Assembly (NCBI RefSeq): GCF_024298765.1
Contig: NZ_CP101210.1
DNA from: Escherichia coli
GTDB lineage: Bacteria > Pseudomonadota > Gammaproteobacteria > Enterobacterales > Enterobacteriaceae
Direction: 5' to 3' (one strand)
Length of the DNA: 64,000 nucleotides
Below the pieces are notes generated by a model. It was not told where the DNA came from. It did no database searches and saw nothing but the letters and a program-made list of their open reading frames with translations. Below are positions 663 to 2,234 of this stretch, one piece after another (the stretch's first letter is position 1; the number at the start of each line of letters is the position of its first letter). The translations under genes were made by a program, and so were the position numbers.

Positions 663-2234
663 ATGAATGTGGAAAAATTTGACTGGACAGAAGAGTTACA
701 TCAGACCATGGTGAAGAGCCTGGTTACATCATTCGGGCTGGATTTTCTGTTGCTAAATGATCGTAAGGGTGGTGATGTTGACACTATCCATAATGTGCGT
801 AATGGCATTTATGCCACGGAGGCTGAGCGACAGCGGTATGAAGGTCGTGGCGAATATGATTCTCATCATTACCACAGCCATGAGAACTATATCGCGACGA
901 ACCGGGAAGGAAAGCGTGCGCATCAGGCAGGGACTCTTACTGATGCATATACAGGCGAGGTGTTTGCTTCTGACGACAAAAAAAATCTGGATCATATTAT
1001 TTCCGCTAAAGAAATTCATGATGATCCGGGGAGAATTCTTGCTGAACGGGATGGTGCAGAACTGGCAAATGACGCTTCAAATCTGGCATTCACTCATGAG
1101 TCGCTCAATAAATCAAAGAAAGCAGACTCAATGGATGCGTTTATTTGCACGCTGCAGAAAAACAGAGAAGATACGTTAAGGCAGATAGCAGAGCTTGAAT
1201 CTCAGGCAACGCTGACAGAAAAGGAAAAGAAACGTCTGATAAGTCTGAGAAAAAAAGCTGATGCAGATACTGAGCGTATGGAAAGGGCTGATAAATATGC
1301 CCGGGAAAAATATGAGGCCACGATTAATCAGAGCTATTACCTGAGTAGTAAGTTTGCTACTGCTGTCGCCAGTGCTTCGCTTAATTCCGGTTTTCGTATG
1401 GGGACGCGACAGATGTTGGGGCTTATTCTTGCCGAGATCTGGTTCGAACTGAGGGAACGAATCCCGCATATTATCAGGCAGCAACGGAACTCATTCAGCG
1501 CCGGCAAATGCCTGTCCGAAATAACGTCAGCATTACGTGCCTGCCAGGAACGAGTACAGGAAAAATTCAGTTCTTTTTTAATTGCCTTTAAAGATGGTGT
1601 CATCGGAGGGATACTGTCAGGTATTACCACAACGCTGTTAAATATATTCCTGACAACGGAAAGAATGATTGTCCGGCTTATCAGGGAAATGTGGAACAAT
1701 CTCGTTCAGGCCTTTAAAGTCCTGGTATTTAATCCGGAGGGATTATCGCCGGGGCAGTTAGCCAAAGCGGTCACTAAACTGATAGCAGCAGGTGTGGCTG
1801 TTGCCGGAGGGGTGATGATAAATGAGGCGATGGCGCAGATCCTTATTTTCCCATTTGGTTCAGAGCTTGCTGCCTTTTGTGGTGCGCTGACGACAGGTAT
1901 TCTCGGGCTGGTGATGAATTATTATCTCGAATATAGCGAGGTTATGCAGCGGGTATGGGCATTTCTGGACAAATTTAAGGACAAATTCCAGCGGTCACTG
2001 GAATACTTTCAGGCAGTCAATGCTGAACTTGATCGCTATCTTGTGGAACTTACTGCACTGGAATTTTCTGTTGATGCTGCCGAGTTAAATCATTTTTCAC
2101 TTCATCTGGATAGCGTAAACAGTGAGATAGAGCGCGGACTTCTGCTGAGAGAAGAAGTCCGCCGACGAGGGATTGCGTTGCCGTTTGAGTCAGGAAATGT
2201 GGCTTCTGTTCGTGACTGGTTAAATAAGCGATGA
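663..2234 (+). CDS. Hypothetical protein: N-terminal HNH-like (His-Me finger) signature, central coiled-coil, C-terminal hydrophobic helical hairpin
   Basis: 523-aa ORF; motif DHIIS...NDASNL...HESLNKSK resembles the HNH core (DH...N...N.K) without zinc-binding cysteines; Lys/Glu-rich heptad-like stretch; ~40-aa hydrophobic hairpin (AAGVAVAGGVMINEAMAQILIFPFGSELAAFCGALTTGILGLVM). Confidence 0.5.
   Translation: MNVEKFDWTEELHQTMVKSLVTSFGLDFLLLNDRKGGDVDTIHNVRNGIYATEAERQRYEGRGEYDSHHYHSHENYIATNREGKRAHQAGTLTDAYTGEVFASDDKKNLDHIISAKEIHDDPGRILAERDGAELANDASNLAFTHESLNKSKKADSMDAFICTLQKNREDTLRQIAELESQATLTEKEKKRLISLRKKADADTERMERADKYAREKYEATINQSYYLSSKFATAVASASLNSGFRMGTRQMLGLILAEIWFELRERIPHIIRQQRNSFSAGKCLSEITSALRACQERVQEKFSSFLIAFKDGVIGGILSGITTTLLNIFLTTERMIVRLIREMWNNLVQAFKVLVFNPEGLSPGQLAKAVTKLIAAGVAVAGGVMINEAMAQILIFPFGSELAAFCGALTTGILGLVMNYYLEYSEVMQRVWAFLDKFKDKFQRSLEYFQAVNAELDRYLVELTALEFSVDAAELNHFSLHLDSVNSEIERGLLLREEVRRRGIALPFESGNVASVRDWLNKR

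Follow-up and report, generated by a model that had tools for sequence, protein, structure and literature searches.

A predicted HNH-type nuclease fused to a membrane-inserted helical hairpin in a conserved three-gene cassette of Escherichia coli

What is the function of a 523-residue protein of Escherichia coli that seems to combine a nuclease-like motif with a hydrophobic helical hairpin? The question is raised by an open reading frame (ORF), here called gene B, at 663..2234 on the + strand of a 64,000-nucleotide stretch of the E. coli chromosome (contig NZ_CP101210.1), which is referred to as the window. Bases 1-5800 of the window match many complete genomes at 100% identity. The annotated reference was NZ_CP032989.1 (locus L001); subtracting 12000 from an L001 position gives the position in the window. 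The original prediction, made from the DNA sequence without database searches, described the product of gene B as a membrane-anchored or pore-forming effector with a degenerate nuclease fold. In this report, we propose that B is a fusion of a predicted HNH-type nuclease domain with a helical hairpin predicted to be inserted in the membrane. Judged from its genomic neighborhoods, B is the middle gene of a conserved, uncharacterized three-gene cassette (genes A, B, and C) that is usually accompanied by a WYL regulator.

The 523-residue ORF of the original prediction is present as described, starts with ATG, and is annotated in RefSeq as WP_001100182.1. An exhaustive HMMER search matched 871 clusters (50% identity level), of which 652 had E<=1e-10 and most aligned over the full length, and at least 1008 relatives were found in a database clustered at 90% identity. 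In an alignment of 70 sequences, with identities down to ~30%, invariance is confined to T41, Y65, H111, N140, N149, and Y225, and D110 is near-invariant. This conservation marks B as a genuine and widely conserved gene and not a chance ORF. The AlphaFold2 model that was built from the family alignment has a mean predicted local distance difference test score (pLDDT) of 87.2, with values of 94-97 across residues 41-230. Nothing significant was found for B in Pfam, NCBIfam, or PHROGs; the family lies outside Pfam and NCBIfam and is without a solved relative, and no experimental paper on it was found.

The N-terminal domain of B (residues 1-155; 663..1127, + strand) resembles an HNH/His-Me finger. 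From the alignment, the core motif was located at 990..1118 on the + strand, from D110-H111 (nt 990-995) through N140...N149-K-S-K152 (nt 1068-1118). The two segments named in the original prediction map to residues 110-119 (DHIISAKEIH) and 136-152 (NDASNLAFTHESLNKSK), and the local pattern reads D-x-Y-T-G ... D-H-I-x-S ... N-L-x-x-T-x-x-x-x-N-K-S-K. A separate alignment of the N-terminal domain reproduces the conservation found with the 70 sequences. The domain also contains the further conserved motifs SFGLDFLL and GGDVDT (residues 23-41). The four cysteines of B (162, 283, 294, and 406) are few, and the invariant and near-invariant columns contain no cysteine; the usual zinc-binding cysteines are thus absent, as had been noted from the sequence. 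The pattern looks like that of a classical HNH motif in which the zinc cysteines have been replaced, in the manner of Cas9. The HNH domain of Cas9 has the spacing DVDH ... N-x8-N and no zinc cysteines. The description of the fold as degenerate must be abandoned, because conservation in the family is highest at the catalytic-type residues D110, H111, N140, and N149 of the predicted HNH domain.

The AlphaFold2 model is consistent with this assignment. A strand at residues 107-111 ends at H111, a second strand at residues 141-145 starts after N140, and a helix at residues 146-152 bears N149, with pLDDT values of 94-97 at the D-H, N, and N residues. The modeled strand-strand-helix fits the register of the HNH beta-beta-alpha metal finger. 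As in the superfamily, a catalytic-type histidine preceded by an acidic residue closes strand 1 (D110-H111), and the H-N-N pattern places N140 at strand 2 and N149 in the helix that follows. The D-H pair at the end of strand 1 is shared with Cas9, the McrA-type nucleases, the C-terminal DUF1524 domain of GmrSD, Vvn/endonuclease I, and the DNase of colicin E9. The likeness to the Cas9 HNH domain extends to the asparagine at strand 2, the second asparagine nine residues further on in the helix (N140/N149), and the absence of zinc cysteines. B is unlike the known HNH/His-Me fingers in having a helical insertion of ~29 residues between the strands of the core, the additional N-terminal motifs, a fused membrane domain, and no significant profile match to a Pfam HNH family. 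In a Foldseek search against the PDB, the top match was the HNH domain of Nme1Cas9 (probability 0.75, E=0.67), another Cas9 was third, and endonuclease I was also among the structural matches. A marginal match was obtained to the Pfam family GmrSD_C (DUF1524, also a His-Me finger), with E=0.22 for the query and with 1 of the 70 family members reaching 1e-3. We describe the N-terminal domain as a divergent HNH/His-Me finger, for which the fold comparison is suggestive only, and consider it likely that B bears a nuclease domain of the HNH type.

Beyond residue 157 the model of B is wholly helical. The nuclease-like domain is followed by a charged helical linker (residues 156-228; 1128..1346, + strand) of variable length, which differs by 20 residues among subfamilies. 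The Lys/Glu-rich, coiled-coil-like stretch of the original prediction is well borne out here, since 41% of residues 155-228 are Lys, Arg, Glu, or Asp and the segment is predicted to be helical. The hydrophobicity profile has maxima near residues 321, 378, and 410, in the B sequence as well as in the family average. The first conserved hydrophobic helix (residues 311-331; 1593..1655, + strand) carries the near-invariant residues G312, G316, N327, and F329. The hydrophobic helical hairpin (residues 365-422; 1755..1928, + strand) is formed by helices at 363-393 and 399-424 that are joined by a conserved turn, P397-F-G399. Glycines are conserved in these hydrophobic helices at positions 312, 316, 383, and 412. 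The hairpin that had been predicted is therefore present, but it spans ~58 residues and not ~40, and a third hydrophobic helix lies upstream of it. An acidic helical tail (residues 423-523; 1929..2231, + strand), probably cytoplasmic from the topology considered below, completes the protein.

One homologue of B bears on the topology. In P0262 (817 residues), the hairpin is followed by ~240 residues, a strong transmembrane (TM) helix that is preceded by lysines, and a domain of the OmpA family (E=1.3e-6). In the periplasm, OmpA-like domains bind to peptidoglycan. With the OmpA domain periplasmic after one extra TM helix, the chain that follows the hairpin in P0262 would be cytoplasmic; were the N-terminal nuclease, which lacks a signal, on the same side, the number of membrane crossings made by the hydrophobic helices would have to be even. 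The loop at residues 332-364 is positive on average (4.7 Lys plus Arg). The simplest model is a hairpin with both termini inside and the first hydrophobic helix in or against the membrane, and we infer this arrangement for B as well. The earlier suggestion that B is anchored to the membrane by its hairpin finds support in the conserved hydrophobic profile and in the OmpA-fused variant. P0262 is a single cluster that lacks the usual C-terminal tail, which is replaced by the TM and OmpA extension, and an artefact of assembly or of gene calling is possible.

Upstream of B lies gene A, which encodes a protein of 359 residues (WP_001207396.1). The whole gene is at 11537-12616 of L001 and begins 463 nt upstream of the window, where the 3' part of 616 nt occupies 1..616 on the + strand. 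In the AlphaFold2 model of A (pLDDT 70, predicted template modeling score 0.74), a short hydrophobic N-terminus is accompanied by very long helices at residues 19-91, 103-149, and 208-275, and confidence is low in a glycine-rich segment. Residues 117-204 make up a stretch of 88 residues with no charge in any of 36 homologues and with ~50% Gly plus Ala, and the glycines at 150, 158, 170-172, 177, 178, 180, and 184 are invariant. From these features A is predicted to be a membrane protein with a glycine-zipper-like segment. Nothing significant was found for A in Pfam, NCBIfam, or PHROGs. The possibility that A and B are paralogues was considered and set aside, as hhalign gave a probability of 17.6% and no homology was detected.

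Gene C (2231..2497, + strand) directly follows B, and its start overlaps the stop codon of B in the sequence ATGA. It encodes 88 residues of the YkgJ/CxxCxxCC type, with weak matches to the Pfam family CxxCxxCC (E=0.0015) and to the YcgN family of NCBIfam (E=2e-4). Among 77 sequences, the cysteines C9, C12, C15, C16, C35, C45, C55, and C82 are invariant. The 4-nt overlap between the stop of B and the start of C occurs in 44 of 75 loci, with a spacing of a few bases in most of the others. C thus appears to be a small, eight-cysteine protein that binds a metal or an Fe-S cluster and is translationally coupled to B. It is absent from the RefSeq annotation of NZ_CP032989.1 and is named a YkgJ family cysteine cluster protein in other records, for example at locus L083. 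No PADLOC model matched C.

When a single genome of each species was scanned with a 19-sequence alignment as the query, 206 loci that encode a relative of B were identified, and 80 of these were retrieved. A adjoins B in 78 of the 80 loci, both exceptions being cut by contig ends, and C adjoins B in 76. The loci come from Gamma-, Beta-, and Alphaproteobacteria, Veillonella, Ruminococcus, Lachnospiraceae, Treponema, Fibrobacter, and Desulfovibrio. Proteobacteria have the order A-B-C, most Firmicutes have B-C-A, and Treponema and Fibrobacter have B-A-C. The retention of the gene set while the order of the genes shifts is good evidence that A, B, and C form a functional unit.

A fourth gene, for a WYL regulator of 298 residues (L001 10592-11488, outside the window and upstream of A), matches the PADLOC WYL model with E=2.6e-22. 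In a survey with a local hidden Markov model made from nine confirmed regulators, a WYL regulator was found no more than 3 kb upstream in 42 of the 64 loci with enough flanking sequence, including those of Firmicutes and Desulfovibrio. For related WYL regulators, the signal is single-stranded DNA or DNA damage. According to PMC9122601 and PMC11662680, WYL regulators of the BrxR/CapW family co-localize with diverse defense systems, and CapW binds or senses single-stranded DNA. The regulator upstream of A shares with these winged helix-turn-helix WYL proteins the WYL match and the association of the defense type, and it is a putative regulator of the cassette. A scan for promoters and terminators was uninformative.

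Of 5426 complete E. coli genomes, 373 carry the four-gene unit (WYL, A, B, and C), always on the chromosome. The E. coli copy lies in a tRNA-Phe island with an integrase at ~14.7-15.9 kb of the window. Directly upstream of the cassette (L001 27-8804) are the hsdR, hsdM, and hsdS genes of a type I restriction-modification system, followed by an AAA ATPase of 540 residues that matches PDC-M55A, NsnB, and AriA and by an unmatched protein of 298 residues; the last two are probably a second, separate defense pair. Plasmids carry the cassette as well (69 records, for the most part of large Klebsiella plasmids), and one of them has a DUF262 gene within 7 kb of the cassette with insertion sequence (IS) elements between. 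Other neighbors include ZacB/ZacC of Azaca, mad2 of MADS, and a DpdF/PsyrT-like helicase. By inspection, then, the cassette has a context of the defense class: it is accessory and mobile, and it occurs beside known defense genes and a defense-type regulator.

A variant cassette with the order B, TerB-like gene, C, A was observed at two loci (L084 10688-11092 and L085 7634-8038). Its TerB-like gene, between B and C, encodes 134 residues, for which two weak matches to TerB were obtained (E=7.5e-4 and 0.01), and the cassette adjoins a gene for a DpdF/PsyrT-like helicase of 1132 residues.

A and B are also found together in phages. Adjacent A and B genes occur in seven Aeromonas jumbo-phage records (Ludhianavirus LAh10, D3, D6, and D9; ~260 kb, lytic); their products are 34% and 30% identical to A and B, respectively, with the D-H...N...N residues intact. 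In phage LAh10 (L082, NC_070956.1), the pair is located at 3979-6575 and the next gene downstream is PagP-like. Neither a C gene nor a WYL regulator was found near the phage copies, and C is therefore dispensable in at least one setting.

The genes downstream of the cassette in the window include a small membrane ORF (2550-2834; 94 residues as listed, 65 in RefSeq), an EptA/CptA-like phosphoethanolamine transferase (2887-4560) that falls below every NCBIfam cutoff and is a divergent paralogue, and a TPR protein of 339 residues on the opposite strand (4704-5723). The small ORF and the transferase accompany the cassette only in L001 and in L002, a locus from a metagenome-assembled genome, and the TPR gene does so in L001 alone; since they rarely travel with the cassette, all three are placed outside it. 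Further along are an IS1 InsA gene with a truncated integrase-core fragment (5788-6425), a raffinose-type sugar cluster (~7003-14600) made up of a carbohydrate porin, a GH32 hydrolase, a transporter of the major facilitator superfamily, an alpha-galactosidase, and a regulator, and the tyrosine integrase and tRNA-Phe of the island (~14744-16180). A genome-wide association study (GWAS) has a table in which rafY, hsdR, WYL, "chemotaxis protein", and "cobalamin adenosyltransferase" genes are listed as chicken-associated in E. coli (PMC12987596), and this set of genes matches the tRNA-Phe island.

The last two of these names are those given in the databases to A and B. B has been called an ATP--cob(I)alamin adenosyltransferase, although it has no match to an adenosyltransferase (CobA/PduO/EutT-type) in Pfam or NCBIfam, and the name is a misannotation. 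The designation of A as a chemotaxis protein is not supported by any Pfam or NCBIfam model. Both misnomers have spread through RefSeq, UniRef, and phage records, and newer runs of the Prokaryotic Genome Annotation Pipeline give "hypothetical protein". In PADLOC, B matches the candidate model PDC-M40B with E=1.3e-42 and 144 bits over residues 11-425, and A matches PDC-M09A (E=3.5e-22, or 1.9e-34 for the A protein of the variant cassette) and none of the PDC-M40 models. These differently numbered candidates suggest that PADLOC splits one family. The matches to PDC-M40 and PDC-M09 of PADLOC-DB v2 mean that the family has already been flagged computationally as associated with defense islands. The PDC entries are unvalidated candidates, and the interpretation as HNH, hairpin, glycine-zipper, and YkgJ proteins goes beyond the entries as seen here.

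What, then, does the cassette do? On balance, our analysis leans toward the cassette A-B-C being a membrane-anchored nuclease system for defense against phages or plasmids. B would be the nuclease subunit of a system in the inner membrane that is encoded by the mobile cassette of WYL regulator, A, B, and C, and the products of A, B, and C would form one membrane complex. The nuclease domain, helical region, and C-terminal tail of B would all face the cytoplasm. Expression of the cassette would be controlled by the WYL regulator, for which BrxR and CapW are precedents (PMC9122601, PMC9122588, and PMC11662680). The complex would cut DNA at the membrane, acting either on foreign DNA as it enters or, after activation, on all DNA, as in abortive infection. 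The membrane parts of A and B may serve as an anchor, as a sensor of events at the envelope or of DNA entry, or as both.

There are systems with a comparable logic. Zorya consists of ZorAB together with the ZorC/D nuclease-helicase, Kiwa of the membrane sensor KwaA and the DNA-binding protein KwaB, and Shield of ShdA, a membrane-anchored RmuC nuclease. Each unites a membrane part with a part that acts on DNA, in a small operon found in mobile defense islands. No sequence or structural relationship of the cassette to these systems was found, and among the PADLOC models, those for Zorya included, A and B match only the PDC candidates and, marginally, PglX. Unlike Zorya, Kiwa, and Shield, the cassette pairs its nuclease with a glycine-zipper protein and a cysteine-cluster protein, and the nuclease itself would be inserted in the membrane by the hairpin. 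A bolder form of the proposal is that A, B, and C constitute a membrane-integrated immune machine of a new type, in which the hairpin-anchored nuclease and its glycine-zipper partner detect or intercept injected or transferred DNA at the inner membrane and C acts as a metal or redox licensing switch of the nuclease. Jumbo phages would then have taken over A and B, but not the switch, to exclude superinfecting phages or to attack host DNA. We regard this version as possible but doubtful.

Several observations weigh against a role of the cassette as a nuclease-based defense system. The structural matches of the N-terminal domain are modest, and no significant profile match of B to any HNH family was obtained (Pfam, best E=0.22). 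Profile searches of the PDB with the B protein, with the full-family profile, and with the N-domain profile gave no usable match. When the N-domain profile was compared by hhalign with an HNH sequence of SpCas9, the probability was 5%, which is not significant, and only the DxYxG...DxDH half was aligned. The topology proposed for B is drawn from one fusion variant and from charge counts. No fusion of A to B was found among the four long homologues of B that were read by eye (P0169, P0233, P0230, and P0262), none of which has an A-like Gly/Ala-rich segment. Recognized defense genes stand beside the cassette in only ~5 of the 19 contexts that were inspected. That A and B are carried by lytic jumbo phages means that a phage, too, can make use of the pair, and this fits superinfection exclusion or an attack on host DNA. 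The phage copies are without C. A literature search on PDC-M40, PDC-M09, the accessions, the domain combinations, and DefensePredictor found no experimental study, the only mention being that in the GWAS table.

Other explanations accommodate part of the evidence. The membrane parts could themselves be the effector, in an abortive-infection pore where the glycine zipper of A and the hairpin of B permeabilize the membrane and the HNH domain serves mainly as a trigger or as a sensor that binds DNA. Conservation in A is highest over the charge-free Gly/Ala stretch and its invariant glycines, and motifs of this kind are typical of channel-forming glycine zippers. The hydrophobic helices of B have small-xxx-small motifs in addition to their conserved glycines, and membrane effectors such as Cap14, Cap15, and Cap19 are frequent in defense systems (PMC9122588). 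We consider a pore rather unlikely. All of the residues needed for HNH catalysis appear invariant, which would favor catalysis over mere binding, no structural match to a pore-forming toxin was found for either A or B, and the glycine-rich segment of A is the part in which the confidence of AlphaFold2 is low. A response to genotoxic stress is a less probable explanation still, and we consider it improbable. A WYL regulator of the DriD/PafBC type would here switch on the membrane nuclease for DNA processing, repair, or programmed death. The TerB-like gene of the variant cassette (E=7.5e-4) points in this direction, as TerB belongs to membrane-linked stress systems, and one UniRef entry names a homologue "DNA repair protein". 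PMC10853764 and PMC10693628 indicate that WYL regulators also govern responses to DNA damage. The name "DNA repair protein" is not supported by any model, the neighbors are restriction and defense genes and not repair genes, and the patchy, accessory spread over islands, plasmids, and phages is atypical of core repair.

The explanation that we find hardest to accept, and that we judge very improbable, is that B is a toxin resembling a colicin or bacteriocin, exported or delivered as an HNH DNase or as a pore, with C as its immunity protein. An HNH domain is followed here by a small, translationally coupled gene on the same strand, and the operons of nuclease colicins keep the immunity gene directly downstream on the same strand. 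The original prediction had counted the lack of an immunity gene on the opposite strand against a colicin, and so had looked in the wrong place; its conclusion gains from C itself, an eight-cysteine metal-cluster protein that is quite unlike the four-helix immunity (Im) proteins. The hydrophobic hairpin of B, set amid amphipathic helices, does recall the colicin pore domain and Bcl-2, and the original prediction had called it colicin/Bcl-2-style. The comparison of folds did not uphold this likeness, as no match of B to a colicin pore-forming or Bcl-2-like fold was obtained and neither a colicin pore nor a colicin DNase is among the structural matches listed. B differs from these proteins in its three conserved hydrophobic helices, its stable membrane partner, and its absence of soluble-toxin features. 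As the original prediction had recognized, B cannot be matched to the colicins: receptor-binding and translocation domains were not found in the Pfam and NCBIfam scans, and neither secretion signals nor a lysis gene was seen in the ORF list or with Pfam. The same architecture, with A as an obligatory membrane partner and a WYL regulator, extends from Firmicutes to Proteobacteria, and the phage copies are without the supposed immunity gene.

The identification of the cassette has a practical side, since the misnaming of its genes as "cobalamin adenosyltransferase" and "chemotaxis protein" affects thousands of database entries and the third gene often remains uncalled. If A, B, and C do constitute a defense system, the presence of the same A-B pair in a lineage of jumbo phages would be explained; the system would add an unstudied architecture, frequent among Enterobacterales of clinical relevance and on the plasmids they carry, and would bear on how DNA may be attacked at the point of its entry into the cell.

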